Positions 16,101 to 35,593 of a stretch of 64,000 nucleotides of DNA are shown piece by piece. The number at the start of each line of letters is the position of its first letter. Positions within the stretch are counted from its first letter, which is position 1. Source of the stretch: an uncultured Pseudomonadales bacterium (GTDB taxonomy: Bacteria; Pseudomonadota; Gammaproteobacteria; Pseudomonadales; UBA7434); contig CALSRU010000005.1 in NCBI GenBank assembly GCA_943788835.1, positions 213,343 to 277,342 of the forward strand, in the 5' to 3' direction. A model generated the notes under the pieces. It was not told the DNA's origin. It saw only the letters and a program-made list of their open reading frames with translations, and made no database searches. The position numbers were made by a program, and so were the translations under genes.

Positions 16101-17525
16101 TTGGCCCACGTTCGTTTATTTAAGCACTACTTGCCTTACCCCATTGTGGCATTGACTGTGATAGAGGCGGCTTTGCTCTATGCGTCCTTAGTTATCGGTC
16201 ACACGCTGCGCTTTCGCCTGTTTGGTGATGTCCCATGGGAAGCACCACTATTGCTAAACCCAATGTTGGTGCCGAGTGCGGCAGTTTACATGCTATTGAT
16301 GCTGCTGTGTACAATGGCTCTAGGAGTTTATAGTGCAGGGTTGCGCGGGGGTAATGGCCCCATGGCCATTCGCACGGTAGTAGCTTATTGCCTGCTCGGC
16401 ACGTCTTCTCTAACGGTGATTTATTATCTGTTCCCATCCCTATACATGGGGCGTGGGGTCTTATTTTACGCAATCATTACCGCGCTTTGCTTAGTGGTTC
16501 CCGTGCGCTGGCTCTTTCTGCGCTTGGTTGACGCCGAATCACTGCGTTCTAGGGTGCTTATATTTGGCGCTGGCGAAAATGCCCGCCGGCTAGCAGAAGA
16601 GTTGGGTGCGGGACATGCTGGCGTGGCAAAGGTGGTGGCGTTTGTGCAGAGCTCTGAATCTGAGCCGGTTTTTGTGACACGCGATTTGCGCTCTCGCACA
16701 GGCACTTTGTTAGAGATGGCGCAGAAGTTAGATATTAGTGAGATTGTTGTTGCGCTTGATGATCGTCGCGCGGGGCAGGGCAGTGCTTTTCCGCTCAATG
16801 AATTATTCGAGTGCAAGTTGCATGGCATTCGTGTGTCCGATGCTATTGGCTTGTGTGAGCGAGAGCTGGGTGTTGTTTCGCTGGCAGAAATCAGCCCTAG
16901 CTGGTTAGTGTTTAGCTCAGGGTTTACCAGTGGTGAATTTGGGCTAATGGTTAAGCGAGCTTGCGATATTATGGTGTCGCTCGTATTACTGCTGCTAACT
17001 TGGCCGCTGATGGCGCTGGCTATAGTGCTTATTTTTTGTGAATCGGGCCGACCTATTTTGTATCGGCAGCAGCGTACCGGCTTGGAAGGCAAGCCCTTCG
17101 AGATATTGAAGTTTCGCAGCATGGTCACTAATGCTGAAAAAGATGGGGCCGCTGTATGGGCTCAAAAAAATGACAGCCGTATTACGCGAGTGGGTGCATT
17201 TTTAAGGAATACGCGTATCGATGAGTTGCCGCAATTATGGAACGTATTGCGCGGTGATATGAGTATTGTTGGCCCACGCCCAGAGCGCCCTGAGTTTATT
17301 CAGGGTCTGGCTAATGAGCTACCCTATTACAATGAACGCCATCATGTTAAGCCCGGTCTGATGGGATGGGCACAACTCAACTATCCTTATGGAGCGTCGG
17401 TTGAAGACGCTGCGCAAAAGCTGCGATACGATCTTTACTATGTAAAAAATAAAAGTTTGATGCTCGATTTGATTATTATGGTTCAAACCGTGCAGGTTAT
17501 TTTATTAGGAATGGGAGTCCGATAG
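16101..17525 (+). CDS. EpsB-type polyprenyl-phosphate sugar transferase (priming glycosyltransferase, PEP-CTERM-locus type)
   Basis: 474 aa with a TTG start. The N-terminus VRLFKHYLP plus 4-5 TM helices is typical of the PEP-CTERM-associated EpsB_2 group. The C-terminal bacterial sugar-transferase domain has [37 protein letters not shown] and SLMLDL. Confidence 0.88.
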
Positions 17526-17526
17526 T

Positions 17527-18165
17527 ATGAATACTTATCTCACAGCATTGCGATGCAGTGCAGCGCGTATTTTTTTGGTAACACTATTTTTTGTAACCGG
17601 CTGCTCTTCGCAGCAAGGCATATCTGAATTACCTACGCAGGGTGTTTTGGAATTGCCCGAATACCGCATTGGTTCAGGCGATAGAATTAAGGTCGATGTT
17701 TGGAAAAACCCTGACTTATCCTCCATTGTCTTGGTACGCCCTGACGGGAAAATTTCGATGCCACTGATTGGTGACGTACTCGCTAGCCAAAAAACCACCG
17801 ACGAGTTGGCTACAGACCTTGAGGAAAAGTTAAAGGACTTTGTTCGCACGCCGCAAGTCGCTGTAATAATAGAAACACCAAGTAGTGCGGCATTTCAACT
17901 TCGCGTTAGAGTGACAGGTGCAGTAAATAGTCCTTTGTCTATTGCCTTTGAAGAGGGTATGACGGTGCTTGATTTGGTGTTGCAGGCAGGAGGTTTGTCG
18001 CCATTTGCGTCCGGTAACAAAGCCTTGTTGCACCGTAAAACGGCTGACGGTGAAATGGGTGCTTACCGAGTCCGGCTGCAGGATATCCTAACTAAAGGCA
18101 AATTAGAAACTAACTACCCACTAGCTCCGTCGGATGTGATTAGTGTACCTGAGCGTAGTTTTTAA
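17527..18165 (+). CDS. short lipoprotein polysaccharide export protein (OPX, PEP-CTERM-locus type)
   Basis: 212 aa with lipobox FFVTGC. The Poly_export motif is YRIGSGDRIKVDVW...VRPDGKISMPLIGDV. A SLBB-like segment follows. There is no long C-terminal region as in the 379-aa Wza. Confidence 0.85.
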   Translation: MNTYLTALRCSAARIFLVTLFFVTGCSSQQGISELPTQGVLELPEYRIGSGDRIKVDVWKNPDLSSIVLVRPDGKISMPLIGDVLASQKTTDELATDLEEKLKDFVRTPQVAVIIETPSSAAFQLRVRVTGAVNSPLSIAFEEGMTVLDLVLQAGGLSPFASGNKALLHRKTADGEMGAYRVRLQDILTKGKLETNYPLAPSDVISVPERSF

Positions 18166-18240
18166 AAGTCTTAATTTATGGTGCTCATTAGATTTTTGCG
18201 TTGGTTTTTTAATTCAATTTAATTTCACAGAGTAGTCGCT

Positions 18241-19750
18241 TTGGATTTTCTATTTATATTGCAGCTCGCAAGGGCAGGTTTCCGTGAGCTTTGGTTACAT
18301 CGCTACGCGGCGCTGTTTGGCGGTTTTACAATTGCTGTCGGTATTCTTATCTACGGCATGCTTTGGCAAGAAAAATACACAGTGTCTACATCGCTATATG
18401 CCGATCAGCAAAATATTATTGCACCGCTGTTGCAAGGCCAGGCGCAGGTCACGAAGGTAGAAGATCAATTGCAGGTTGTCAGAGATTTGATGCTCTCTAA
18501 TCGAATATTGGAGCAAATTGTTAAGGGCGAGATTATTTAAATGGTTTAGAGGACCCTGCCCAGCAGTCGTCGATTATTAACGGCTTGCGTGAACGAGTAG
18601 AGGTAGTCACTAGGTAAGAACTATATTGGCGTGTCTTTTGCTGATGTCAGCCCAGATCGAGCTTACAACCTAGTTACGCAACTGGTTGACCTCTTTATAA
18701 AAGAAAGCTCAGCCAATAAGCGCGGCCAAAGTAAGCAAGCTTTCTTGTTTATTGAAAAACAGGTGGCTTCTTATAAAGAACAGTTGCGCCAAGCCGAAGA
18801 TCGCCTAAAAGAATTTAATGCCTCTAACCTCGATGGCAGTGAGGGCAGAGTGCAAGGCAATATAGAAGTTCTACGTCAGAATATTGCTGACCTAGAACTA
18901 GATTTAGGGCAGGCAAGTGAGAGAGTTAAATCATTTGAATCCCAAGTTACACAAGAAGACCGATACTTGTCACGCAAAGCGAGGTCTGAAGAATTCCGCG
19001 AGCGAATTGCAGAGGCGGTTACACAGCTAGATAACTTAAAGCTGTCGTATACCAGCAGACACCCCGATGTCATTGCATTGGAAGAGCATATTAAAGCTTT
19101 GAGAGGCGCAGCTTCGGCGCCAGTGTCAGGGGCAGCGTCAGGTGATTCGACTGTTCGTGGTGTTGAGAATCCTGTTTTTGATGAGTTGCGTGGTGCCCTT
19201 GCCTCGGCAAAGGTTGAGCGCGACACACTAACTAGCCGTTTAAGCTCCATGCGTTCGCGCTTAGGCGAAGAGCGTGAGCGGGCATCGCGTATAGCCGAGC
19301 GAGATGCCGAGCTTGCTGAGCTGACGCGTGATTACTCAGTGACTAAAGGTCTTTATGAAGATTTATTAAACAGTAAAGAAAAGGCGCGCTCTCTCTATGA
19401 CGCTCGATATAGAAGGCCAAGGTGTTACCTACAAAATACAAGAGCCGGCTAAATATCCTTTGTTCGCAAGTGGTTTGCGGTTCATTCATTTTGCGCTGGC
19501 GGGGCTTGCAGCAGCTGTCGTAATACCCATTGGATTAATCCTTGCTTATATCTTTTTGGATCCTCGTATTCGTTTTAGTAACGCCATCGAAGAGCAATTT
19601 GATGTGCCATTGCTAGGCGAAATACCGCATTTGGTCTCTAACCCGATCAAACGGATGCGCAAGGTCGATGTAAGGCTATTCGTTTTTATGGGATTGGTTT
19701 GTGCGGCGCTCTATGCATCGACAGCCGCCTTTTATCTTATTTGGATGTAG
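18241..19750 (+). pseudogene. polysaccharide chain-length determinant (PCP, PEP-CTERM-locus type), broken by three frameshifts
   Basis: The track fragments are 18241-18540 (frame 1), 18631-19452 (frame 1) and 19397-19750 (frame 2). An unlisted frame-3 piece at 18525-18614 reads GRDYLNGLEDPAQQSSIINGLRERVEVVTR. Together they give a ~503-codon PCP-like protein with an N-terminal TM (FGGFTIAVGILIYGML), a long coiled-coil middle and C-terminal TM helices. The frame path is 1>3>1>2. Confidence 0.8.
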
Positions 19751-19754
19751 TGCT

Positions 19755-20504
19755 ATGGACTTTGATCAAAATCCAAAAGAGGGCTCGCGAAATATTGTTC
19801 GCTTAGATGAAGCAGAAGATCGCTTGTCACGCCAGCAGATTCGTGAAATGGCCGATATCTACCATCTTGCCGTTGAAGATTTAGATGAAAAGAAAATTAT
19901 TCATTCTAAAATGCGTGATAAAAAAATCCTCAATGTATTCCGAGAGATTCGTACCAAGCTGATGCAGAAAGTGGGTGGCAAGAATTTCACTTTGCTAGTC
20001 ACGTCTATTAGTCAGGGCGGCGGAGCAACGTTCGTGAGCACGAATTTAGCCGCCTCGTTTGCGCTGGATCATGGCAAAACGGCATTGATGGTTGATTGTA
20101 ATATCTATGCGCCATCTAACGATCAGCTTATTGATGGTGCCGATCTCGGTTTTTCAGATTATCTCCAAGACCCGTCGATTTCTATGGAAGAAATTATCTA
20201 TGCAACAGGTATTCCAAGGTTGCGGTTGGTGCCGGCAGGCAGTGCTACTGATTTAGGGCCGGAATACTATACCTCCTATCGGATGCAGCAGTTTGTTGAA
20301 GAGCTCCAAGGCCGTTATGCCGATCGCTACGTCGTGATTGATGCGCCTCCAATTGGAAGTACGGCCGATGCCCGTATTCTGGCAGAGTTATGCGATTTCG
20401 TGACTATCGTGGTGCCTTATGGCATGGTGACTAGCGAACAAGTAAAAACAGCTATTGAAAGCGTGCCTAGCGATAAGTTAGTGGGCTTGATTTTTAATAA
20501 CTGA
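19755..20504 (+). CDS. BY-kinase-like P-loop ATPase partner of the chain-length determinant, with a degenerate Walker A
   Basis: 249 aa from the ATG at 19755, 4 nt after the PCP stop. It has MinD/BY-kinase architecture: a Walker A position reading VTSISQGGGATF, Walker A' LMVDCN and Walker B YVVIDAPPIG. No C-terminal Tyr cluster is present. Confidence 0.75.
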   Translation: MDFDQNPKEGSRNIVRLDEAEDRLSRQQIREMADIYHLAVEDLDEKKIIHSKMRDKKILNVFREIRTKLMQKVGGKNFTLLVTSISQGGGATFVSTNLAASFALDHGKTALMVDCNIYAPSNDQLIDGADLGFSDYLQDPSISMEEIIYATGIPRLRLVPAGSATDLGPEYYTSYRMQQFVEELQGRYADRYVVIDAPPIGSTADARILAELCDFVTIVVPYGMVTSEQVKTAIESVPSDKLVGLIFNN

Positions 20505-20554
20505 ACTCATTCTAAGCTCGGATTTACTCAAATCAGAAAGTTCGGCCAGATTTT

Positions 20555-22078
20555 TCAAGGAACTTTACTAATAATTGGTGGACCGATCCATTTGGTCAAA
20601 AAAACAGGCAGTTTCTGCCAGGTTTTTATTAGCAGCTTGTACTTAGGGTTATTTGGGTTGAGTTCGGGTAGCGGTGCATTATTGTCGAGCCAGTAATGCC
20701 AGTGATGTTCAACGGGTTTAGCTCCCCATTGCTTTTTAAATCGATAAGTTGGGCTGTCTTTGCTCGACCGGCCAAAATCAAAATAGTTGTAATGGTTGCG
20801 AATGGCAAACCCCAGCACTTCTCTGTAGAGCAGCATGTTGGCATCCATCGAATTATAATATTTTATAGTCGATGCCCAAGGTATCTCTAATATGTTGTCA
20901 TGCCCTAGCAAGAAAGCCGCAGACGCAGGCTTATTTTTTAAATATAAAACGACAATTTTGGATGATGCGGGGAAAGTATTGATCATCTCCCTAAAAAACC
21001 TTTTGCTATAAACTGGCGTGCCTAGGTCTCTCATGTTGGTAGAAAAAACGGTGTAAAAGTCGTCTATTAAATTAGCCTTGCCCGTTTTCACTTGGAAACC
21101 AAAGCGTCTCGCACGATTTATCTGTGCTCTAATCTTGGCCCCCACTTTTTCATCAAAGGCTTGTTCTGTTTTGGCGAGTCCTAAGACCATCGAATTTTTT
21201 TCATTTTTTGAAGGCCAATCATTGAGATAGTTCGTCGCACGGACTTCTAAGTGTGAAACTTTAGCCTGCTTGCAGTCCTTGGCTGCTGCATCCAATAGGG
21301 CTGCTTCAACGTCTCTATTGTCAGCTAGCGGTCCTCCATAGTTCAGGTAAGGTACCGAAACAGCCAAATGGCCAAATAGTTTACTTTTAAGAAAATAAAC
21401 AGGGAGTATGCCGACCAAATTCCCGGACTTCGACTTGGCTGCATAAAGCTTTGATTCACAATGAAATATTTTTTTAAAGAGGTCTCGCCATTGGTAGAGA
21501 TGCGCATGGGCGCTCGCGGCATGTGTTTTGACGTAGCCATCCCAATCGGGTGCATCAGAATCTTCCATATACATGATTTCAAAGTCTTCGATGCTCGATT
21601 CATCCGGTGTGACGTGGCTGAAGCGAGCAGGTAAATCCGGAAGCTCATCGGCGGGGTCAAAGAATGCTAGTAGGCACTTTTGCGTATGTTTTAACTGCTT
21701 TTCGGCAGCTTTTAGCCTTGCAGATGCATGGGCTACTTGCTCTTTGACGGTATTTTGTGCAGTTGATGAACTACCTGGCTTTGAGAATTTTTTTGAAAGT
21801 AATTGCTTTTGTGATTTCAATGTCTTCAAGGATTTTTTTTGTATTTTTATATCTTCGTACAGCTCTTTAATTTGCTGCAGTGAATCACAATTTTCCGCAC
21901 GGCCCCATCGGCTAACGACTGCTTTTTCTATATCAGAGAGGATGTCTTGAAGTTTCATGCTATTAAGGTTTTCGCAATGGTGTTTATCGACTGTAATTCT
22001 AGCATAAGGCGCTGCGCTTACCGCCTGAACAATGCTGAGCAAATTGGCAACTATTGGGTCGATTATGTGTACAGCCAT
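20555..22078 (-). CDS. FemAB-family protein (PEP-CTERM-system-associated type) with an N-terminal coiled-coil extension
   Basis: 507-aa ORF. The C-terminal ~340 aa (from about DWDGYVKTHAASAHAHLYQWRDLF to the end) look like the FemAB-related family found in exosortase loci. The N-terminal ~165 aa are extra. An alternative start is Met41 at 21958. Neither start has a clear SD. Confidence 0.75.
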   Translation of the reverse strand: MAVHIIDPIVANLLSIVQAVSAAPYARITVDKHHCENLNSMKLQDILSDIEKAVVSRWGRAENCDSLQQIKELYEDIKIQKKSLKTLKSQKQLLSKKFSKPGSSSTAQNTVKEQVAHASARLKAAEKQLKHTQKCLLAFFDPADELPDLPARFSHVTPDESSIEDFEIMYMEDSDAPDWDGYVKTHAASAHAHLYQWRDLFKKIFHCESKLYAAKSKSGNLVGILPVYFLKSKLFGHLAVSVPYLNYGGPLADNRDVEAALLDAAAKDCKQAKVSHLEVRATNYLNDWPSKNEKNSMVLGLAKTEQAFDEKVGAKIRAQINRARRFGFQVKTGKANLIDDFYTVFSTNMRDLGTPVYSKRFFREMINTFPASSKIVVLYLKNKPASAAFLLGHDNILEIPWASTIKYYNSMDANMLLYREVLGFAIRNHYNYFDFGRSSKDSPTYRFKKQWGAKPVEHHWHYWLDNNAPLPELNPNNPKYKLLIKTWQKLPVFLTKWIGPPIISKVP

Positions 22079-22238
22079 ATGGTCGGCTATACAGAATCCG
22101 TCGTGTCACTATGGTTTTAAAAAAACGCTTTAAAAATAGTAGTTTATTCAGTGTTGCTCTATATTTATGCCATACTTATTGCTAAGCATAAGTACAGCTA
22201 TACGTATGTCCCTAACCTAATTTTTCGGTATCGCTTCG

Positions 22239-23774
22239 ATGCATGCTAAGCCAATTATTTCTGACCGCCGGTCGAGTTTACTACTATCCGCTTTTCTGGC
22301 TGTAGGCATCTTGGCTTGGCAGTTTTTCCCAACAGTCTTCTCGTTACATTCAAGATGGGCTGTCTTAAACGAAGCCTATGGTCACGGCTACGTAGTTGTG
22401 GCACTTTGTGCCTATTGTTTTTGGCGTTATTTGACTCTCTGTCCACCCTCAGCAGTAGATAGCACGGCCTTGAAACCAAAATCTCAATTTCTTGGTATGT
22501 GCGTTTTCGTCTTGGGTTTACTGGGTTGGATATTCGCAGAGGCTAGTTTTACTCAATTGTTTGCACAGCTAGCATTGCCAGTTATGTTTTCCGGGTGGGT
22601 TATTGGTGTCCATGGTGTAGATTTGTTTCGTCGTGTCTGCTTAATCCCTTTGCTTATGTTCAGCTTTGCTCTTCCGATTTGGGACTTCCTGGTAGGCCCC
22701 CTTCGCGCAGTGACCACTGATGTGACTGCCTTCGTGCTCAGTACTTTGGGTATTACTTTTTACGTTAGCAATTTCCAGTTCTATTTTCCGTCGGGTATTG
22801 TTCGCGTTGCCGGCGGTTGCTCAGGTCTTAATTTTTTTACCGCAGCATTGCTTATCGGTTTTTGTTATTCTGAGTGGGTTCTTGACGGTAAAAAAAGAAT
22901 AGTGAGTGTATTTCTTGCCTGTCTATTTGCAGTAGTAGCGAACTGGCTTCGAGTTATTTCATTAATGTTGCTTGCCCATTACTCAGAGATGACACACCCA
23001 TTGATTTATAATCATGGATTCTATGGATGGGTTGTTTTTGCCGTAATGCTTCTTTTATATTTTTATATCATGCAAAATTTTTTTTGTGCTGACCATAGAT
23101 CTAATAATCCAAACCCTCCTGAGCCGAAAAACCTTCCGCATACGCTGGGTGCAGTGATACCCACTAGAGCAGAAATGTATTCAATGGCTATTTTTTTTCT
23201 GGTTTTAATGATTTTGGTGTGGGGCTTTCATACCCTTTCTGACAGTCAAAAAATTAAGACTATAGAGCTAAAAGTTCCCCAGTATTTTCAGCAATATGAT
23301 CTAAGCAGCACTGATTGGATGCCGCTGTATAGCGGTTATGATAGGGCGCAGCACTGGGTAGTGCGTGTGGAGGGCAATCCTCGCTTGACGGTATTAACCT
23401 ATCTTACGCAGCAGCAAACAAAGGAATTAGTTTATTTTAGTAATCGTCTTGGCGGCGAATATAAAGAAACCGCATTAACTGCTTTTTATAGTGATGGAGG
23501 GATTCCTTTAGGGCGATCAATTATAAATACAAAAGATGGCAAGCAGCTAATTTATTGGGCTTATCATGTTGGTGACCGGTATACCATCAACCCCATTGTG
23601 GCAAAGTTTTATCAGGTGCTTGCTGCCTTAGCAGGTAAGTCTAGCTCAGAGCTTATTGCGGTGAGCTACGACTGTAGCGAGGCATGCCGTTCGACAGTTG
23701 ATAGCCCGCAGGGATCGGCGAGAGCTCAGCAGGTATTTGAAATTATTAACTCACTTAAATGGCAGGTGAATTAA
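22239..23774 (+). CDS. xrtA: exosortase (XrtA-like) fused to an EpsI-family domain
   Basis: 511-aa polytopic membrane ORF. Exosortase signature segments are VRVAGGCSGLNFF (Cys), ANWLRVISLML (Arg) and HPLIYNHGFYGW (His). After a further TM helix, the C-terminal ~200 aa (…YSGYDRAQHWVV…LTYLTQQQTKELVYFSN…LIYWAYHVGDRYT…) resemble EpsI. Confidence 0.88.
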   Translation: MHAKPIISDRRSSLLLSAFLAVGILAWQFFPTVFSLHSRWAVLNEAYGHGYVVVALCAYCFWRYLTLCPPSAVDSTALKPKSQFLGMCVFVLGLLGWIFAEASFTQLFAQLALPVMFSGWVIGVHGVDLFRRVCLIPLLMFSFALPIWDFLVGPLRAVTTDVTAFVLSTLGITFYVSNFQFYFPSGIVRVAGGCSGLNFFTAALLIGFCYSEWVLDGKKRIVSVFLACLFAVVANWLRVISLMLLAHYSEMTHPLIYNHGFYGWVVFAVMLLLYFYIMQNFFCADHRSNNPNPPEPKNLPHTLGAVIPTRAEMYSMAIFFLVLMILVWGFHTLSDSQKIKTIELKVPQYFQQYDLSSTDWMPLYSGYDRAQHWVVRVEGNPRLTVLTYLTQQQTKELVYFSNRLGGEYKETALTAFYSDGGIPLGRSIINTKDGKQLIYWAYHVGDRYTINPIVAKFYQVLAALAGKSSSELIAVSYDCSEACRSTVDSPQGSARAQQVFEIINSLKWQVN

Positions 23775-23802
23775 CAATGGCCAAAGTAATATTGAGTTGA
23801 CT

Positions 23803-25053
23803 ATGCGGCAACCAATAAAATCCAAGCAGGACGCTAGCGAATTCGCTTTCTATGTGTTTATGTTTTATATGTTGGTGGTGTATTCCGGTCTTCCGGATTA
23901 TTTCCCCACGCTGGGTGCCATAAGACCAGGTCTGCTTTGCGTAAGTCTCTTGACTATTAACATGTTGTCATCAGGTTCTTTGAGTAAAGATATTACGGAA
24001 ACGGAAGTGTTAATGCTCTTCCTGATTATAGGCCAGTCTTTGCTGTCGTTTACGTATGCAAAAAATACAGGGGTAATGAGGCATCTATTTGAGGCAGAAA
24101 TACTGAACATTTTTGGTTTAACGCTAGGAGTAATGCTGGCCCTTCGTGCTGAATATCATTTGCGAGCGTTTTTAAAACTTTGGTTGTTTCTCGGTGTTCT
24201 TATATCCGCTCAGGTAATAAAAAACGGTGGAGTGGGGCCGCAGCGTCTGGGTGATGAGAACGACGTTACATTAGTAATCGTGCTCATGCTGCCCTTCTTT
24301 TTCCTGGGCGTTAATTTTTACAAAGGCTTTTATAAGTGGCTTTGTGTTACCGGCATTCTTCTATCTTTCGTTGCAATAGTTGCAGCTACATCAAGAGGTG
24401 GTTTTTTGGCTTTGGTGGGTATGTTGGTAATGCTTTGGTTTTTTTCAAGAAAAAAAATTGCATGGGTTCTTGCTGCGGGTTTGTTAGTGAGTTTGGCGGC
24501 CGCTTTTTTTATTCCACAACAATATAAAAACGATATGAGTACTATCAGCGACACGCAGGAATCTACAGCGGATGCGAGGTTATACTCTTGGATGCTTGGC
24601 TTTGAGATCTTTAAAGATAATTGGTTTTTAGGGGCAGGGACCGGTCAGTATGGTTGGGAGGTGTCGAAGTATCAGCGTGAGCGAGGTGATTTTGAAATTG
24701 ATGAGCAAGGTTTAAAAAAACGTAGAGACCTTAGCGGGCGAACATCTCATTCGTTGTATGTCGACTATATAAGCGAGAGAGGAGTGGTTGGCCTGATTTT
24801 TTTCAGTATCATGGCGGCGTCGATTTATCGACGATTAAAGTCAATGCGAGCACGGTGGTCGGATAGGGCTGGTGACCCTCAGAATGACCTCTTTGTCTAT
24901 TTCTCCGTAGCGGCTTCTTGCGGTATCGTCGGGAATTTGGTGGGATCTATTTTTGTCACCAGCTTTTATTTCCCAAGCTTGTGGCTGATGGTGGGCTGGG
25001 TAATCGCAACGCATCGAATCGTGCAACCCAACCGGATGGACATTGGTATATAA
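23803..25053 (+). CDS. O-antigen-ligase-like (Wzy_C) membrane protein, exosortase-associated type
   Basis: About 416 aa with ~10 TM helices. Wzy_C core segments are ATSRGGFLALVGMLVMLWF and HSLYVDYISERGVVGL. It lies immediately downstream of the exosortase. The ATG at 23803 is preferred over the TTG at 23797. Confidence 0.8.
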   Translation: MRQPIKSKQDASEFAFYVFMFYMLVVYSGLPDYFPTLGAIRPGLLCVSLLTINMLSSGSLSKDITETEVLMLFLIIGQSLLSFTYAKNTGVMRHLFEAEILNIFGLTLGVMLALRAEYHLRAFLKLWLFLGVLISAQVIKNGGVGPQRLGDENDVTLVIVLMLPFFFLGVNFYKGFYKWLCVTGILLSFVAIVAATSRGGFLALVGMLVMLWFFSRKKIAWVLAAGLLVSLAAAFFIPQQYKNDMSTISDTQESTADARLYSWMLGFEIFKDNWFLGAGTGQYGWEVSKYQRERGDFEIDEQGLKKRRDLSGRTSHSLYVDYISERGVVGLIFFSIMAASIYRRLKSMRARWSDRAGDPQNDLFVYFSVAASCGIVGNLVGSIFVTSFYFPSLWLMVGWVIATHRIVQPNRMDIGI

Positions 25054-25088
25054 ATGGAAGTAATTACGCTGTTTTTTAGGAGATTATA

Positions 25089-26306
25089 ATGGCTCAAAAG
25101 CGAGCTCTATTAATCAGTTACGATTTCCCACCGAGTAATCGAGTGGCGGTGCAACGTAGTCTTGCTATGGCGTATCATCTTATGCAAATCGGTTGGGATA
25201 TAAAAATTCTTACCGTGGTGCCAAAGTGTTATGAGTCGATCGATAAAAATCTTTTTACCTCTTTAGAATTAGAGCAGGTGACGACACACGCATGGGCCTT
25301 TAACACGCGTAAAATTGGGTTTCGAGGTAAATACATCGATTTTTTTACCATACCCGATGAGTGGATAAGTTGGTTGATCCCTGCTTTGATTAAAGGGCGG
25401 CAGTTGATTAAGGCTAATAAATTTGACTGTATTTGGTCTACCTGCCCACCTTTTACTACTGAATTCATTGCGGGTCTGCTTTCAAAGAGATATAACATTC
25501 CTTGGGTTGCTGATTATCGCGATCCTGTTTTGAAAGGTGACCATGGTAAAGGTGTGATTGGGCAAGCGTGGGGTATTGATAAAGTTGATGCTTTCACCAT
25601 TAAGCATGCATCCAAAGTAGTATTTACAACCACAGAGGCCCTTGACTTATATAAGCGTTATTACCCAAACACTGATCATAAGAAATTTTCGGTCATTCAA
25701 AATGGTTATTACGATCTTCCTAATATTGATCGGGCGCAGTTAAAAACCCAGTACAGCGCTAAGCCAACAAAACATATCCTGTATAGCGGCAGCATTTATG
25801 GGGCGCGTAACCCCTCATTAATACTAGAAGCTCTTGAGTTGCTGAAGCAAGAAGGTCGTATTGCTGTTGGCGACATCAAACTTCAATTTCAGGGGAATGG
25901 CCTTAAACACACGCTGGCACCGCTAATTGGAAAGTTTGCACTCGAAAGCTTTGTTGATGTCTTGCCTTCAGTTGGTTTTGAAGAATCGATAAAAAATATG
26001 TACCAAGCCGATGCGTTATTGCTAATACAAGGTGAGAAATTCAACTTACACATTCCAGCAAAAGCGTATGAATATATAGCGTCTAAACGGCCGATTATCA
26101 GTTTTTGTCCTGCTGGTGGAGCGACGGCTGTGCTTCTAAAAGACATTCCAAATGCGTTAGCTGTTGATTCTTTGGAAACTGTAACGGCGGCATTAATCAT
26201 GGTCCTAAACGATGCGTTCGATATACCAAATCATGAGGTCGCGCCATATGCTCGTAAATCTCGCGCACTAGAGCTTGACACTTTGTTTACAGGTTTGAGT
26301 CGATAA
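25089..26306 (+). CDS. glycosyltransferase (GT-B fold, GT4-like)
   Basis: 405 aa with a good SD (AGGAG). The GT-B-like C-terminal half includes ADALLLIQGEKFNLHIPAKAYEYIASKRPII. The family call is by eye. Confidence 0.6.
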   Translation: MAQKRALLISYDFPPSNRVAVQRSLAMAYHLMQIGWDIKILTVVPKCYESIDKNLFTSLELEQVTTHAWAFNTRKIGFRGKYIDFFTIPDEWISWLIPALIKGRQLIKANKFDCIWSTCPPFTTEFIAGLLSKRYNIPWVADYRDPVLKGDHGKGVIGQAWGIDKVDAFTIKHASKVVFTTTEALDLYKRYYPNTDHKKFSVIQNGYYDLPNIDRAQLKTQYSAKPTKHILYSGSIYGARNPSLILEALELLKQEGRIAVGDIKLQFQGNGLKHTLAPLIGKFALESFVDVLPSVGFEESIKNMYQADALLLIQGEKFNLHIPAKAYEYIASKRPIISFCPAGGATAVLLKDIPNALAVDSLETVTAALIMVLNDAFDIPNHEVAPYARKSRALELDTLFTGLSR

Positions 26307-26310
26307 TTTT

Positions 26311-27387
26311 ATGGTTGGCGATAAAGCGCGATATCGAACAATAGATAGCTTGCGAGGTTTTGCAGCTATTGCTGTCGTTTTTTTCCATTTGACTGGTAAC
26401 ATCAGGCAAGAGTTATCAATGTGGGTGCCTGAGATAGTGATGACCATATTTTCTTACGGATATTTAGGGGTGCCAGTCTTCTTCGTCATCAGTGGGTTTG
26501 TCATTGCTCAAAGTATTGCGAATGCAAATGTCAATCTAAAATTTGCAGGTAACTTTGCCCTCCGGCGTATGATCCGTTTAGACCCACCCTACTGGGCATC
26601 TATAATTATTGCGATGGTGCTGCTGGCTATGAAAAACGCCATGCAGGTGAACGAGGAGCCGTACCCATCATTTTCTACTCTCGCTGCACACATTTTCTAT
26701 TTGCAGGACTTACTGAAAATTCCACCAGTCATCTCTGAAGTTTACTGGACTCTGTGCCTAGAAGTGCAGTTTTATTTATTTTTCATTTTTTCCGCCGTTT
26801 TAATGTCTGCGATAGCGCCGAGTAAATATTGGGGAAAAAATCTTCACTTTATTTTAATCCTTGCTTTTGGCGTTGCTTCTATTTTGGCAGACTATAAGTT
26901 ATTAAATAGTATGCCATCGGGTTTTTTTTTACCCTACTGGCATTACTTTGTAACTGGTATTATCCTCAGTGAAGTAGCTAAAAAAACCCCCTATGCAACT
27001 TTGATCTTTTTGTTTTGGCTTGGATTTGAAGTGATAATGCAGATCTCTCAGCCGCTACGCCCCTATACTATCGCATTAATTTTTTGTGCGGCTTTTGTTT
27101 ACTTGGGTCTTTTCTTTAACGCTTTAGATAGATGGCTCGTTTATCGACCGTTTCTCTTTTTAGGGTATATTTCCTACAGTCTGTATCTGCTGCATCCAGA
27201 TATCGGTTGGAAGGCTATAAGCATTGGCAAGACCTACTACGGATTAGATATGGCGTGGTATCAGTCTGCGGGTGTGTTCGCTGGTGGTATTACAATAAGC
27301 ATCCTCGCTGCTTGGTTGCTGGTTGTACTCATAGAGCAGCCCTCGGTAAGGTTGGCCAAAAAATTTAAAATCAAACCGGTCAGCTAA
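26311..27387 (+). CDS. acyltransferase family 3 (integral membrane O-acyltransferase)
   Basis: 358 aa with ~10 TM helices and the N-terminal motif IDSLRGFAAIAVVFFHL. It contains an in-frame T9 run at 26922-26930. Confidence 0.85.
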   Translation: MVGDKARYRTIDSLRGFAAIAVVFFHLTGNIRQELSMWVPEIVMTIFSYGYLGVPVFFVISGFVIAQSIANANVNLKFAGNFALRRMIRLDPPYWASIIIAMVLLAMKNAMQVNEEPYPSFSTLAAHIFYLQDLLKIPPVISEVYWTLCLEVQFYLFFIFSAVLMSAIAPSKYWGKNLHFILILAFGVASILADYKLLNSMPSGFFLPYWHYFVTGIILSEVAKKTPYATLIFLFWLGFEVIMQISQPLRPYTIALIFCAAFVYLGLFFNALDRWLVYRPFLFLGYISYSLYLLHPDIGWKAISIGKTYYGLDMAWYQSAGVFAGGITISILAAWLLVVLIEQPSVRLAKKFKIKPVS

Positions 27388-27406
27388 ACGATTTAGGATT
27401 TAGGTT

Positions 27407-28507
27407 ATGAGTAATTGGGTATTTAGAGAAAATAGTTTAGATATGCTACGTCTTTTTGCTGCTTTCCAGGTAGTAGTGATGCATACGCTGGGCTACATGA
27501 TGCCTGACTATGGCTCAAACGCAGCATTACGAATATTGGGTTATTTTCCTGGAGTACCTATCTTTTTCTTTATTAGTGGTTATTTGATTAGCAAGGCTTT
27601 TGAAAATTCCCCTAATAATATCGAATATGCGAAAAATCGTTTCTTGCGTCTATATCCAGCATTAATTGTTTGTGTTGGTCTTAACATTTTGATGGTGGCG
27701 ATAACAGGTTATTTTTCTCAGGTGGGAGCCTCTGTTGCCGATGTTGGATTACTATTTTTAGCCAAGGCGAGTTTCCTGCAGTTTTGGAACCCCGAATTCA
27801 TGCGAGCCTTTGGTGATGGTGTTTTAAATGGTAGTCTCTGGACTATTTGCGTTGAGCTTCAGTTTTATTTGATTACGCCGTTCTTATATCTTGTCATTCC
27901 AAAAGATAAAAGGCACGGCAATTATCTTTTGGTTGCCTTGTTGTTTTTGTTTATCGTTTTTAACAGGATTTTAGTGTTGCCCGAGTTTGATTCCTCTAAT
28001 GAACTGATTTGGAAGTTCTATAGTGTGAGCTTCATGCCGTGGTTGTATATGTTTATTACGGGCATTTTATTTCAGCGCAACTTTGCATTTTTGTCTGCGT
28101 TTGTTAGTCGTATTTCTTGGCTTATTTTGCTGCCAGTGTATTGTATTTATACATTCTTTATGATCGATCTCGGTTTCGAAACTGGTAATAACGTCTCTCC
28201 GATAGTCTTTTTTCCTTTGATTTTTTTAATATTTAGGTTGGCCTATCTCGGCACTGAAAAATCAAACAATTTGCTGCGTGGTAACGATATTTCATACGGT
28301 ATTTATATTTGGCACATGCCAATTGTGAACCAAATGTTGTTTTTAAATTATGGGCAATCTTATCTTGATGTTGTGATTGCATTGATGCTGACCTTTCTGG
28401 CCGCTGTCGCCTCTTGGGTGTTGGTAGAAAGGCCCGCAATCCAGCTAAAACATGTGACGCTCAACTCCACTTTTTCTAAATTCAACTCAAAACGAGTAAA
28501 GCGTTAA
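27407..28507 (+). CDS. acyltransferase family 3 (second, tandem copy)
   Basis: 366 aa with ~10 TM helices and the N-terminal motif LDMLRLFAAFQVVVMH. Confidence 0.85.
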   Translation: MSNWVFRENSLDMLRLFAAFQVVVMHTLGYMMPDYGSNAALRILGYFPGVPIFFFISGYLISKAFENSPNNIEYAKNRFLRLYPALIVCVGLNILMVAITGYFSQVGASVADVGLLFLAKASFLQFWNPEFMRAFGDGVLNGSLWTICVELQFYLITPFLYLVIPKDKRHGNYLLVALLFLFIVFNRILVLPEFDSSNELIWKFYSVSFMPWLYMFITGILFQRNFAFLSAFVSRISWLILLPVYCIYTFFMIDLGFETGNNVSPIVFFPLIFLIFRLAYLGTEKSNNLLRGNDISYGIYIWHMPIVNQMLFLNYGQSYLDVVIALMLTFLAAVASWVLVERPAIQLKHVTLNSTFSKFNSKRVKR

Positions 28508-28848
28508 TTTAGAGACGTTGAGAGTTTTTTTCTTTGCGACTGAAGACGTTATAAGTATTGCTATGTAATGTTTTGCTAATTAGTTTGATCAGAGCAGTCG
28601 GCCAAATTCTTAGCTATGGCTATTGCAGCATTGTCTAAATCACGGCGTTACTTTGAATTAAGCCTTCGGTCTCTGGAATTTTTAATGGAAGACTTTATCG
28701 AGATTGCCGGCGAAATGTTTTTGGTGCTGCGGAGTGTGCCAGTGTGCGAAGCGGCTGGCAAGATTTCAAAGTTTTTTTGGCTGAACTGTGGCATAAACGC
28801 TTTCTACTAAAATTTTAGCCGATATTATTCATCGAATCGATAAGCAAT

Positions 28849-30309
28849 ATGGAACAAAAAGCAAAGAAAGGCAAGATGCTGAACCATTCCGCAATCTATG
28901 CATTGGGTATCTTTATCCAATATTCGACATCAATTGTCATGATGCCGATCTATACACGCTATCTTACGCCTCAAGATTATGGAGTCGCCGATCTACTGGC
29001 TTTGGGTGTGGAGGTGGTCGGTCTCATCATTGGGGTAATTAGTGCCGAAGCTATTTTTAGATTCTATTTCGAAAAAGACGACGCGCAACATAAGCGTAGG
29101 GTAGCGTTTACAGTCTTTTTGGTAAGCTTACTAATCAATTTAGTGGGCTATTTATTTATTTATTTTACCGCGGTCTATTCTTCGAGTTATCTATTTGAAG
29201 GGACTAATATTTCGAATGGTGTGGCGCTTGTAAGAATTTATGGGGCTACGCTAATATTTCAAGTTCTAACCGCAATCCCTATGGCTTATATACGGGCGCA
29301 GCAAAAGCCCGTTTTATTCGTAATGTTTTCGGTGCTACGGTTAGTGCTAGCGGTGGCCTGCAATATCTATTTTATTGTTTACCAAGAGTTGCATGTAGTG
29401 GGTGTTATTTATGCGGTATTCACCTTCAGCGCGATCCATGGAGCTATTTTATTTACCTACATGATTAGTAAGACCGGTATAACTTTTTCTGGGTCTTTAG
29501 CGCGCAAAGCCTTATCTTTTTCTTGGCCGCTCATGCTCTCTTCGTTTGCTTTATTTTTGGTGACCTATGCAGATCGCTTATTTATCAAGCATTATGTTGA
29601 TTTGACCGCAGTTGGGCTCTATTCGTTGGCTTATAAATTCGGGTTCATTTTTATAGCAGTTTCTTGGGCTCCGTTTAGCCAAATGTGGGAGTCTCAGCGT
29701 TATATTGTAGCCAAGCAAGCCAATGCGCAGGAGATTTTTCGGTATACTTTTAGGATGACTCAGGGTTTTGTATTAATTTGTGCCGCAGGGCTTTCTATTT
29801 TTGCGCAAGATATTTTACGTATTTTGGCAGGCAGTGAGTTTCAAGAGGCTTATAGGTTAATAGGGATTATCGTCTTTGCTTATGTTTTTAATATTTGGTC
29901 ACAATATTGTATGTTTGGTATTTTATATTCTAAAAAAACTATTTATAAAAGTTATGCAGATTGGTTGACATTACTTTTCACTTTGATTTTTTATTTTTGT
30001 CTTATTCCTAAATGGGGCGCAATGGGAGCCGCAGTGGCTACTTACTTTAGCCTGTTTTTAAGGTTTTTACTTTTAAATTATTGGTCGAATAAGTTTTTTG
30101 ATATGTCACTAGATTGGCCAAGAACAATATTAATATCGGTTTCGGCTTACTTGGTATACGGTATTTCTATTTATATTGAGGCACCAATAATGATTTCGTT
30201 AGCATTAAACGCATCACTATTATTTGGGTTTATGGTGATGGTTTGGTTTATCGGTTTTTCTATTCAGGATAGAGAGAGAGTAACTAATTATATAAAGGCT
30301 TTTCGATAA
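28849..30309 (+). CDS. Wzx-type polysaccharide flippase (MOP superfamily)
   Basis: 486 aa, hydrophobic throughout with about 12-14 TM helices. Its position in the locus and its overall pattern are typical of Wzx. Confidence 0.7.
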   Translation: MEQKAKKGKMLNHSAIYALGIFIQYSTSIVMMPIYTRYLTPQDYGVADLLALGVEVVGLIIGVISAEAIFRFYFEKDDAQHKRRVAFTVFLVSLLINLVGYLFIYFTAVYSSSYLFEGTNISNGVALVRIYGATLIFQVLTAIPMAYIRAQQKPVLFVMFSVLRLVLAVACNIYFIVYQELHVVGVIYAVFTFSAIHGAILFTYMISKTGITFSGSLARKALSFSWPLMLSSFALFLVTYADRLFIKHYVDLTAVGLYSLAYKFGFIFIAVSWAPFSQMWESQRYIVAKQANAQEIFRYTFRMTQGFVLICAAGLSIFAQDILRILAGSEFQEAYRLIGIIVFAYVFNIWSQYCMFGILYSKKTIYKSYADWLTLLFTLIFYFCLIPKWGAMGAAVATYFSLFLRFLLLNYWSNKFFDMSLDWPRTILISVSAYLVYGISIYIEAPIMISLALNASLLFGFMVMVWFIGFSIQDRERVTNYIKAFR

Positions 30310-31336
30310 TGGCGGCGCGGAGTCCTTTGAGCATTAAAATATTTCCTTAAGTTGCTAGCATCTAAATTTGGCAGGCATAACTGGCCAGCCGTTAGGCCCC
30401 GCTTAAAAATATTAGCTTATCACCGGAGTGCTGCCTAGAGATGACCCGCAGGTTGAGTTGGAGCAGCCTGCAATGTGGGTCACACCAGAAACTTTCGAAA
30501 AAAATATTGTCTGGTTAAAAGAAAAATTCGAGATCATTAGGTTAAAGGATTGGGTTTCAACAAGCACTAGCACATTTAAAAATAAAAATTATTGCTGCAT
30601 AACATTTGATGATGGCTGGCTAGACAATTACCAGTACGCACTCCCAATTCTGGTTAAGCATAATATACCTATCACGTTGTTCTGTGTTTCGGAGATGATT
30701 GAAAGTGGTTTGGATTTCTGGCCGGGGCGGCTGGCGAGTTACGTCAGGCAGTCGGTTGGGACGGGGCGTTGGCCGGAATGTTTAGATGATTGGCCTTGGT
30801 TAAATGCGGTTGTATCGGATGATGAGGCAATTAAGCAGCGACCGTTGGGCCAAGCAAATATGGATAAGTTGATTGATGGATGTAAAATTTATTCTGATTC
30901 AGACATCAACCAATTTTTAGATATTATGTTTGAGAACGAGCGTAAAGACTATGTTCAACCGAGAAGACTACTTAATACAATAGAAGTCCGAGAAATGATT
31001 GAGACGGGCTTGGTTGATATAGGGTCACATACAAAATACCACACACGTCTGACTACATTACGCACGGATACTCAACTTACAGACGAAATATTGGGTTCGA
31101 AGTTGTCTCTCGAGGCTCGTTTTGGGGTGACAGTAGATCTATTTTGCTACCCCAATGGGCATTGGACTCGACCGGCCATTGAAATGGTTGAGCAATATTA
31201 CTTAGGCGGTTGTGTGCTGAGGTCGGGATGGAACTATCAAGGCCAAAGTCTAGGTGATCTGAAAAGATTCAATATGCATGAAGATATTGCTAATGAGAAA
31301 GTTGAGTTTTTTTCAAGAATGTCAGGATTTATCTAA
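30309..31336 (+). pseudogene. polysaccharide deacetylase (CE4), 5' end broken by two frameshifts
   Basis: The track ORF 30428-31336 (frame 2) has CE4 motifs (ITFDDGW, GSHTKYH, FCYPNG). The expected N-terminus is present in other frames: ATG 30309 (frame 3, MAARSPLSIKIFP*), then frame 1 at 30331-30435 (ALKYFLKLLASKFGRHNWPAVRPRLKILAYHRSAA*). The join is YHR/VLPRDDP. Confidence 0.7.
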
Positions 31337-31482
31337 GGAGCATACGTTTTAAATCCTGTTTTTCGCGAGTCTATATGGTTTGACTATGACAACCATGCAG
31401 AGGCACGGGGGCATTTTTTTGCTGAGATATATCTAAGTGTGCCCGGCCCTTTGCACTTATTTCTGGGCAAGTTCTGCTCCTG

Positions 31483-32286
31483 TTACCTAATAGTTGATGC
31501 TGAAAACCCGAGGCATGAACCATTTAACATACAATCAGGATAAACAAGGCTTGCATTGAGCTTGCACCGTGCACCCACTTGCTTAAAGTCATGGGCCTTA
31601 TTATCTGGATAGTCTATGTTTCTGCCAATGAAGCCGTCCGCAGCATGACAAGTTGGCTTGTATGTAGAGGCCAGTTTAGCCGCCCCACTAAGTGATACTA
31701 AATAAGCAGCAGCGGAGGCCCTCCATGATTCAGTATTATATAAGTTGCCTTTGATTTTTCCGTTCGGCGGATAGTGAGAAAGAGCGGAGCTTAGAAAAAT
31801 AATATCCCAATTGGCAGGGAGGCTAGCAACATCGATTGAATTTATTCGGCTTGTGACGAAAATGGCGTCGTCTTCTAAAATCAATGCCATCTTTTGGTTA
31901 TTTGCGACGATTTGATCGTATATTTTTCCGTGCGACAGCGAAAGCGCTATTTCGCCTAATCGAAGAGGCCTGCCATGATATTTTCTGGCGGTCGCGTCAT
32001 CGTATAGCCCATCGCGAGTAAGGCCTTCTACATCCAGCTCCGCTCCGTTTATACCTTCGACAAACTGGAAGTTCGAGAACTCGGTTCTATCAACTTGCTC
32101 TAGCATAAAAGCCCGTCGTTCTCTGGCGCTGGGAAGGTTGATGCAATATACGGGTATGCTGGCCAAGGCTTTGTTTTTGATTTTTTTTGTGGGCATGATG
32201 CCAAGTTTAAAATATACATGGTACAAGCCGACTATCGGGTCGTTCAGGACGGTCTTTATTCTGTTTATTAAAGTTGAGCCTAGCAT
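31483..32286 (-). CDS. glycosyltransferase family 25
   Basis: Motifs IPVYCINLPSARERRAFMLEQ and LILEDDA are typical of GT25 (LgtB/Lic2B-like) enzymes. The start is either 32286 (SD-like GGGGTGAG, 80-nt overlap with the upstream gene) or Met31 at 32196. Confidence 0.8.
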   Translation of the reverse strand: MLGSTLINRIKTVLNDPIVGLYHVYFKLGIMPTKKIKNKALASIPVYCINLPSARERRAFMLEQVDRTEFSNFQFVEGINGAELDVEGLTRDGLYDDATARKYHGRPLRLGEIALSLSHGKIYDQIVANNQKMALILEDDAIFVTSRINSIDVASLPANWDIIFLSSALSHYPPNGKIKGNLYNTESWRASAAAYLVSLSGAAKLASTYKPTCHAADGFIGRNIDYPDNKAHDFKQVGARCKLNASLVYPDCMLNGSCLGFSASTIR

Positions 32287-34005: not shown

Positions 34006-34172
34006 GTTATGGCCTTGGAGGGACGCTGGACTTGGTTATATGACCGCTTTTGTATTAATCATCTCAAGTATAGACACTTTAACAGTTACGTGCTGACCTA
34101 CAATCAGGCATTTGCGGCTGACTGCGAGTGCCAGCAAGAGTTTATGAACTCAATCTTGAATAGGCCCTATTT

Positions 34173-35580: not shown

Positions 35581-35593
35581 TGAGTGCTGCAGA

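Follow-up and report, generated by a model that had tools for sequence, protein, structure and literature searches.

A FemAB-like protein of an XrtA-type exopolysaccharide locus with an N-terminal arm homologous, at the family level, to the tRNA-binding domain of seryl-tRNA synthetase

The stretch of DNA considered here (the window) comprises 64,000 nucleotides of contig CALSRU010000005.1 from an uncultured Pseudomonadales bacterium, and it contains a typical XrtA exopolysaccharide locus in which a gene for a FemAB-like protein is found on the minus strand (20555..22078), divergently transcribed from an exosortase gene on the plus strand (22239..23774), as the first-pass annotation of this DNA had read it. 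FemAB-like proteins have been regarded as markers of XrtA/PEP-CTERM loci since the system was first described. The evidence collected below supports the view that a FemX-type transferase of these Gram-negative exopolysaccharide loci captured, at its N-terminus, the tRNA-binding domain of seryl-tRNA synthetase (SerRS). The parts of the gene and the neighbours needed for the argument are the following:

20555..22078, minus strand: longest open reading frame (ORF) of the arm plus FemAB-like protein, 507 residues, span including the stop codon (TIGR03019, E 1.1e-94)
21956..21958, minus strand: M41, the probable true start codon, from the homologue column and the homologue lengths
21659..21958, minus strand: residues 41-140, homologue of the SerRS-type tRNA-binding arm, two short helices followed by an antiparallel two-helix hairpin (profile searches and AlphaFold2)
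21785..21880, minus strand: long helix 1 of the hairpin, residues 67-98 (AlphaFold2), holding the family-invariant K85 (codon 21824-21826)
21767..21784, minus strand: hairpin tip, residues 99-104, divergent here (SKPGSS) from the family consensus G-x-A-K-x-x-G
21659..21766, minus strand: long helix 2 of the hairpin, residues 105-140 (AlphaFold2)
21548..21658, minus strand: linker, residues 141-177 (~37 residues), with the exit motif L-P-x-R-F (LPDLPARF), predicted local distance difference test score (pLDDT) 78-86
20558..21547, minus strand: FemX-like double-GNAT core, residues 178-507 (whole TIGR03019 model, Foldseek, core profile)
20735..20740, minus strand: codons of F447-K448, aligned with F304-K305 of Weissella FemX
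22239..23774, plus strand: exosortase of 511 residues with a C-terminal extension (TIGR03109, TIGR02602)
16101..20504, plus strand: XrtA-type exopolysaccharide genes for a priming glycosyltransferase (TIGR03013), an export protein (TIGR03027), a chain-length determinant (TIGR03007, fragmented) and a tyrosine autokinase (TIGR03018)
30428..31336, plus strand: polysaccharide deacetylase (Pfam Polysacc_deac_1, 1.7e-20), counterpart of the FemAB-adjacent deacetylase of many other loci

When considered from its C-terminal side, the protein conforms to a known family. The first-pass annotation had placed a FemAB-related core in roughly the last 340 residues, and TIGR03019 (pepcterm_femAB) bears this out, since residues 178-507 cover positions 2 to 330 of the 330-position profile (317.2 bits against a cutoff of 260.35); because the model is fully accounted for in this way, the first ~177 residues are extra to the TIGR03019 family. 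With the whole predicted structure as query, the first Foldseek matches are all aminoacyl-tRNA-dependent proteins, namely Weissella FemX, Staphylococcus aureus FemX, the peptide synthases Sbb17 and Sba18, FemA and MprF, the match to Weissella FemX (1xf8) having an E-value of 4.8e-16, a template modelling (TM) score normalised on the target of 0.71 and a root mean square deviation of 3.9 Å over 340 columns; the coiled-coil-armed Fem ligases among these matches are the entries 6snr and 1lrz. A full-length profile searched against the sequences of the PDB returned SerRS alone and none of the Fem enzymes, so that a profile restricted to the core (A3, 77 sequences) was needed to recover FemX; it gave the FemX of Weissella viridescens at 4.2e-9, that of S. 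aureus at 4.3e-6 and Sbb17/Sba18 at about 3e-4. The column of K448 is invariant and that of F447 nearly invariant among the 77 core sequences, and the residue aligned with K448 in Weissella FemX, Lys305, is catalytic (PMC12945691). No long helical insertion was seen inside the 330-residue core in the AlphaFold2 secondary structure, the core having the size of the armless Weissella FemX, and no match to tRNA-synt_2b, the class II synthetase catalytic core, was found in this protein, in which the arm is followed by the FemAB core. Thus, the core is supported as having the fold of a FemX-type aminoacyl-tRNA transferase and as keeping its catalytic Lys, and the corresponding activity is predicted, in keeping with the FemABX-type enzyme proposed at the outset.

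A different donor could nevertheless be envisaged for this core, which might act as an acyl-CoA-dependent N-acyltransferase of the Acetyltransf_6 type, as considered for Caulobacter HfsK, with an arm that would perhaps be regulatory or related to RNA. Acetyltransf_6 is indeed its strongest Pfam match (2.8e-12), whereas the match to Pfam FemAB (PF02388) is marginal (26.0 bits against a gathering score of 24, E 5.1e-6, residues 303-380 only), one homologue is named 'BioF2-like acetyltransferase' in UniRef, and the donor of the Fem-like HfsK is not established (PMC5362036). It is however an improbable reading, given that the top structural and profile matches are aminoacyl-tRNA-dependent, that the catalytic F-K pair of FemX is conserved and that the fusion of a tRNA-binding domain would be hard to explain on a CoA-dependent enzyme.

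The upstream module is the less expected part of the protein. The suggestion, initially made by eye, that it reads like the tRNA-binding arm of SerRS has held up at the level of the family. The best Pfam match of residues 41-168 is Seryl_tRNA_N (PF02403), with residues 60-136 aligned in register to positions 21-97 of the 108-position profile. Taken singly, this protein reached 22.5-22.9 bits (E 1.4e-4) when the arm was searched alone and 17.7 bits as a whole protein, the Pfam gathering score being 28.2, and the weakness of the single-sequence score can be ascribed to the tip of the hairpin (FSKPGSSSTAQN), which departs from the family consensus F-G-x-A-K-x-x-G-x-D. Among the 86 non-redundant orthologous arms of an alignment (A1) in which all members are mutually <55% identical, 81 matched Seryl_tRNA_N (E<0.01, best 1.4e-10) and the next family was matched by 12; a precomputed PF02403 match was already present on 45 of the 120 best homologues. 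The Seryl_tRNA_N check proposed with the first-pass annotation therefore came out below threshold for this protein (22.5 bits by the lower value) and clearly in favour for its relatives.

Searches in the opposite direction lead to the same synthetase. When the A1 profile was compared with all PDB sequences, the top nine matches were all SerRS (2.3e-9 to 4e-4), aligned collinearly (query 8-106 with SerRS 9-106), and the first match outside SerRS, an unrelated coiled coil, appeared at 0.005; when A1 was compared with 26 SerRS sequences by hhalign, the probability was 98.7% and the E-value 4.5e-16 across 110 nearly gapless columns. As controls, the forward arm hidden Markov model (HMM) scored 38-42 bits on three SerRS fragments of the PDB, a reversed-sequence HMM 6.5-10 bits and twenty column-shuffled arm HMMs 0.7-6.5 bits, a loss of ~30 bits. 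Against 1.84 billion representative proteins, the arm profile found just 872 matches at E<=1e-3; the ~55 best (E<=1e-10), as far as they could be classified, are FemAB fusions or N-terminal fragments with the sole exception of P0166, a generic coiled-coil protein of 968 residues, and SerRS, with its fragments, is the next family below the FemAB fusions. The motifs common to the arms and SerRS read [KR]-[QN]-x-x-[SA]-[RK]-Q-[FI]-G-x-A-K-x-x-G-x-D, followed by L...M...S. Because the profile evidence from the relatives and the controls agree, homology of the arm to the N-terminal tRNA-binding domain of SerRS, going beyond a look-alike coiled coil, can be considered established at the family level from these sequence comparisons.

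AlphaFold2, run on a 104-sequence alignment, predicts the whole protein with a mean pLDDT of 94 and a predicted TM score of 0.79. Counting from M41, two short helices are followed by a long helix (27-58), a turn and a second long helix (65-100), the two long helices having pLDDT >90, and then by a linker leading to the core at about residue 126; run on the arm alone, the program returned an identical hairpin (pLDDT 91). The predicted hairpin measures ~50-55 Å, a length equal to that of the bacterial SerRS arm, K91-Q92 of the first long helix align with R-N of SerRS, and the linker retains P150 in 108 and F153 in 85 of the 120 homologues. The antiparallel hairpin expected by the first-pass annotation is therefore predicted with confidence; the superposition on SerRS that it had also proposed turned out to be undiscriminating, as Foldseek with the arm alone returned nothing at E<1e-3 and scattered the SerRS entries 1sry, 6r1m, 6r1o, 2dq0, 7ap1, 6h9x and 9qmp among generic helical hairpins, with TM scores of 0.56-0.65. 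Since the arm-only structure search cannot decide, homology was judged by sequence profiles.

The same search also brings up the simplest alternative for the function of the arm, namely that the hairpin is a plain coiled coil serving in oligomerisation or in contacts with the coiled coils of the export machinery (chain-length determinant, tyrosine kinase), with no involvement of tRNA. Helical hairpins are versatile, the arm-only Foldseek search gives many unrelated coiled coils including the EmrA and MacA adaptors, the mean net charge of the arms is just +2.2, and orthologues that have no arm exist. What is conserved in the arms, however, are SerRS motifs rather than a heptad composition, and the reversed and shuffled controls fail; furthermore, the closest characterised members of the fold to which the arm is fused use aminoacyl-tRNA, and the arm recurs on a second Fem-like GNAT family (see below). 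A plain coiled coil is accordingly a rather unlikely explanation.

The start of the protein deserves a separate comment, because the ORF as originally given began at M1. Residues 1-40 show no conservation among the homologues, most of which have 466-480 residues and align from about residue 41, a Met occupies the M41 column in 82 of 120 homologues, and the opening of the arm family, M-D-x-K-x-I-L-x-D-P, resembles that of SerRS, M-L-D-x-K-x-I-R-x-x-P. On these grounds the true start is probably M41 and not M1. Comparison with a 94%-identical metagenomic relative (L081) is uninformative on this point, since the two DNAs are 100% identical over a region that starts ~70 nt before M1 and extends past M41. 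Over 21800-22240, all the differences from that relative lie within the ~95 nt nearest the exosortase start. A more drastic revision would have translation begin at M169 or M171, just before the core, making the whole N-terminal extension an annotation artefact: neither a clear Shine-Dalgarno sequence nor a sigma-70 promoter was seen ahead of M1 or M41, scanning 21850-22300 for promoters and terminators gave no match, and TIGR03019 needs residues 178-507 only. This is most improbable, as the arm HMM matched core-bearing ORFs only, and always in frame, in the 80 species-level loci described next, as M169 and M171 are unconserved among homologues, and as conserved motifs, a high-confidence fold and ratios of nonsynonymous to synonymous substitution rates (dN/dS) below 1 indicate translation.

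The distribution of the arm was followed in a scan of one genome per species, from which the 80 loci closest to the query were kept; given that selection, the figures are no census. With local HMMs, the arm was found in frame with the core in 51 of the 80 loci, 50 of them at E<1e-3 and down to 6e-36, so that the extension is conserved among orthologues, one of the outcomes on which the first-pass annotation had made its reading depend. As a separate ORF, the arm was not detected by its HMM in any of the 80 loci, armless ones included. The full arm is present in about 20 loci, and about 29 (L016-L022, L031, L036, L040, L042, L052 and others) have a shorter form, with an extension of about 105-125 residues that the arm HMM matches from about position 35 (the hairpin), the first short helices being missing or diverged. 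Arm-bearing loci are gammaproteobacterial, including Cellvibrionaceae, Spongiibacteraceae, Granulosicoccaceae, Thiotrichaceae, Saccharospirillum, Oleiphilaceae, Marinobacter, Marinimicrobium and Aestuariirhabdus, with the exception of two metagenome-assembled genomes (MAGs), one carrying the label Verrucomicrobiaceae and the other Hydrogenophaga, both possibly mis-binned; the named isolates among the best homologues are Teredinibacter haidensis, Reinekea sp. MED297, Oceanicoccus and Porticoccus. Armless relatives are found in Nitrospirota, Steroidobacteraceae, Woeseiaceae, Syntrophobacteraceae, Manganitrophus, Tenderia and several unclassified gammaproteobacterial MAGs.

In a neighbour-joining tree of the cores, the armless sequences mostly cluster together and a small armless group nests among the arm-bearing ones; as such a tree is rough, no firm claim is made on a single gain or on later losses. 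The dN/dS of the arm ranges from 0.07 to 0.45 in the few pairs for which it could be computed, synonymous sites being saturated in most pairs, and the least saturated pair has values of 0.07 in the arm and 0.05 in the core. The arm is evolving faster than the core, yet under purifying selection. A more distant protein (P0238, 517 residues, L082 4676-6229) has an Acetyltransf_6 domain together with a Seryl_tRNA_N arm of 55.7 bits, above the gathering score. It is not matched by the TIGR03019-type core HMM and adjoins a Wzx-type flippase and a GT4 glycosyltransferase in another polysaccharide cluster; the combination of arm and Fem-like GNAT protein therefore spans more than one family.

Several known systems resemble parts of this architecture. 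The armless TIGR03019 form, of about 330-350 residues, shares with the present protein the whole-model match, the locus type and the association with a deacetylase; its model has no arm, whereas the present protein and a large gammaproteobacterial group add a SerRS-type arm of ~100-140 residues at the N-terminus, a feature absent from the Nitrospirota, Steroidobacteraceae, Woeseiaceae, deltaproteobacterial and several gammaproteobacterial TIGR03019 relatives in the scan. The UDP-MurNAc-pentapeptide:L-alanine ligase FemX of Weissella viridescens (PDB 1NE9, 4II9) has in common with it the double-GNAT fold, a domain 2 profile match, the aligned F304-K305 and the lack of an internal coiled-coil insertion. 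It differs in being only 17% identical, in having no arm that binds the tRNA body and in acting on a peptidoglycan precursor, as opposed to the exopolysaccharide/exosortase locus of a Gram-negative bacterium considered here. In Gram-positive bacteria, FemA, FemX and MurM carry a two-helix antiparallel arm thought to hold the tRNA, which in FemA, S. aureus FemX and MurM is an insertion in subdomain 1B, residues 235-297 (PMC8280954). S. aureus FemA and FemX and Streptococcus pneumoniae MurM resemble the present protein in joining a core of the aminoacyl-tRNA transferase type to a two-helix antiparallel arm. The arm profile did not pick up their internal arms at E<=1 in the PDB search, and because the arm described here is N-terminal and homologous in sequence to SerRS, in contrast to the internal insertion of FemA, FemX and MurM, it is best seen as an independent acquisition. 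The likeness to the N-domain of SerRS (PF02403) itself begins at the initiator Met and continues, collinear and nearly gapless, until helix 2 ends, with the same hairpin length and the same tip motifs, the difference being that in SerRS the arm precedes a class II synthetase core and in this protein a FemAB core. Finally, Caulobacter HfsK/HfsH also pairs a Fem-related GNAT enzyme with a deacetylase in one polysaccharide-modifying pathway (PMC5362036); for HfsK, likened here by description only, no SerRS arm is reported and the locus type is another.

From its homology to SerRS and from its fusion partner, it is likely that the arm binds tRNA. Which tRNA is a more delicate matter. In human SerRS, helix 1 touches the tRNA through R9, R44, R47, D51, N54, N58 (which is invariant) and S61, helix 2 does so through K104 and R107, and the arm acts across the dimer (PMC4666401); R44 and D51 contact the variable arm, and the mutant D51A is inactive. 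These residues were mapped by motif spacing on a position table of the 86 arms and 26 SerRS. The distal motif is kept, reading R-N-x-x-S-K-x-I-G-x-x-K-x-x-G-E-D...L...M...S in SerRS and K-Q-x-x-[SA]-[RK]-Q-[FI]-G-x-A-K-x-x-G-x-D...L...M...S in the arms, and by this mapping the equivalents of N58 and S61 are conservatively kept as Q/N and S/A. At the equivalent of D51 (position 45), 81% of SerRS have Glu whereas 91% of the arms have Lys, and neither the R-R pair (the R44 equivalent, positions 37-38) nor the N-terminal Arg (position 7) is conserved in the arms. The length and the tip of the arm thus seem to have been preserved and the surface that reads the variable arm remodelled, so that the arm may have lost its specificity for tRNA(Ser) or changed it. 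The specificity for tRNA(Ser) or a type-2 tRNA that the first-pass annotation had raised remains a possible prediction, weakened by the residue mapping, and if the arm does bind tRNA, the chances that Ser-tRNA(Ser) is the donor appear evenly balanced. The name 'serine/alanine adding enzyme', given by JGI to some homologues, is an annotation transferred from MurM and was not counted as evidence for serine.

It may be, on the other hand, that the arm is a generic device for docking on the tRNA elbow, which does not select tRNA(Ser), and that the choice of amino acid is made in the GNAT pocket, the donor being another aminoacyl-tRNA, for instance of Ala or Gly. The positions of helix 1 that read the variable arm are not conserved (Glu to Lys at 45, loss of R-R at 37-38 and of Arg at 7), with the tip and helix 2 kept; moreover, the arms of FemA, FemX and MurM serve Gly-, Ala- or Ser-tRNAs (PMC8280954), and Weissella FemX recognises tRNA mainly through the acceptor stem (PMC12945691). 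Against this stand the near-gapless alignment with SerRS, the preserved length and geometry of the arm, the conservative retention of the N58 and S61 equivalents and the consideration that a captured SerRS domain would most simply be expected to keep its ligand. Generic docking is hence to be taken seriously, while being on the whole on the unlikely side.

Under the interpretation preferred here, which is moderately probable, the arm is a predicted tRNA-docking device on an aminoacyl-tRNA-dependent transferase that modifies exopolysaccharide. The captured N-terminal domain of SerRS (residues 41-140), the linker and the FemX-type double-GNAT core would form a two-module enzyme, in which the arm would dock on the body of an aminoacyl-tRNA, at its elbow or variable-arm region, and so bring its aminoacylated CCA terminus to F447-K448 in the FemX-like active site. 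An exopolysaccharide intermediate bearing a free amine would then receive the aminoacyl group, the likeliest acceptor being an amino sugar whose N-acetyl group has been removed by the co-occurring polysaccharide deacetylase, and the product would be an N-aminoacyl sugar in the XrtA/PEP-CTERM-associated polysaccharide.

The choice of acceptor in this scheme, for which the first-pass annotation had named the polysaccharide, a lipid-linked intermediate or PEP-CTERM proteins, derives from gene linkage. The exopolysaccharide setting of the gene would itself favour an acceptor other than a peptidoglycan precursor. In many orthologous loci, armed or armless, a polysaccharide deacetylase gene adjoins the FemAB gene on the same strand, often with a 4-nt overlap, and the deacetylase of the window (30428-31336) is related to such FemAB-adjacent ORFs (L007, L010, L013, L023, L043 and L047) with phmmer E-values of 1e-47 to 1e-63. 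The same pair is found in the locus table of the Rubrivivax XrtA system (PMC3684757), and in Caulobacter holdfast synthesis the Fem-like HfsK and the deacetylase HfsH belong to one pathway (PMC5362036). Because a Fem-type reaction needs a free amine, a de-N-acetylated amino sugar suggests itself as the acceptor, an assignment that we regard as tentative and slightly short of an even chance.

A number of observations weigh against the docking interpretation and its extensions. The deacetylase of the window lies 8 kb from the FemAB-like gene and is not adjacent to it; the Seryl_tRNA_N score of the single protein is below the Pfam gathering score, and the arm-only structure search did not discriminate; the equivalents of D51, of the R-R pair and of the N-terminal Arg are changed, and the SerRS arm works across a dimer interface. 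Orthologues that lack the arm, in Nitrospirota, Steroidobacteraceae and others, apparently function all the same. No dedicated tRNA gene was found in the window or in 29 arm-bearing loci, nor any dedicated tRNA or aminoacyl-tRNA synthetase gene nearby. The literature on FemAB proteins in connection with PEP-CTERM, exosortase or aminoacyl-tRNA yielded locus tables only, with no functional or biochemical work found; the first-pass statement that this exosortase-associated family is uncharacterised thus agrees with the absence of any functional study in the literature found. No published description of the arm fusion was found either, automated Pfam annotation flagging the domain in some members.

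That a large gammaproteobacterial branch is fused to a SerRS domain provides independent, sequence-based support for the idea that this family works with aminoacyl-tRNA. It also leads to a testable hypothesis, that of a tRNA-dependent aminoacyl decoration of exopolysaccharide with Ser-tRNA as candidate donor and the linked deacetylase as candidate partner, for which cultured organisms are available (Teredinibacter haidensis, Marinimicrobium locisalis, Reinekea sp. MED297, Oceanicoccus and Porticoccus). In a broader sense, the protein would exemplify the capture of a synthetase tRNA-recognition module by an enzyme predicted to consume charged tRNA, parallel to the internal arm of FemA and MurM and evolutionarily independent of it. 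A bolder extension, which must be called quite unlikely, is that an aminoacyl group, possibly seryl, is transferred from aminoacyl-tRNA to a de-N-acetylated sugar of the exopolysaccharide or to a lipid-linked precursor, and that its alpha-amino group is the nucleophile for the attachment of cleaved PEP-CTERM proteins by the exosortase. In the FemXAB and sortase A pairing, the Gly bridge on which LPXTG proteins are received is made by Fem enzymes. If this extension were true, the system would be the counterpart of that pairing in Gram-negative bacteria, and the SerRS-derived arm a lineage-specific device drawing the right charged tRNA from translation.

As regards the neighbouring genes, the exosortase matches TIGR03109 (XrtA) at 9.3e-49 with 166 bits, under the cutoff of 208, and the general model TIGR02602 with 130 bits, over the cutoff. 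It is XrtW-like in length and looks like an atypical exosortase-EpsI fusion; the 94%-identical metagenomic relative has a counterpart annotated as Exosortase_EpsH plus EpsI (weak). The TIGR03013 and TIGR03027 neighbours score above their cutoffs and those of TIGR03007 and TIGR03018 below. The chain-length determinant gene (TIGR03007, 498 positions; 18241-19750, plus strand) is distributed over three ORFs (18241-18540, 18631-19452, covering profile positions 127-382, and 19397-19750) and hence contains frameshifts, which denote either a pseudogene or a sequencing or assembly error. Further neighbours encode an O-antigen-ligase-like protein, glycosyltransferases, two Acyl_transf_3 proteins, a Wzx-type flippase and two polysaccharide deacetylases. 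The Acyl_transf_3 (O-acyltransferase) genes form a tandem pair of paralogues at 26311-28507 on the plus strand, and the second deacetylase gene lies at 38883-39926 on the plus strand, 8 kb from the first. A PaaK-like acyl-CoA/AMP ligase gene (34173-35580, plus strand) is apparently split into the overlapping ORFs 34173-34793 and 34762-35580, with family matches in the first ORF only, to the N-terminal ~125 positions of models of ~420 positions. Finally, the G+C content is 0.40-0.43 over 20001-36000, the variable polysaccharide part that includes the FemAB gene, against 0.47-0.50 in the flanks, which fits a horizontally exchanged cassette.

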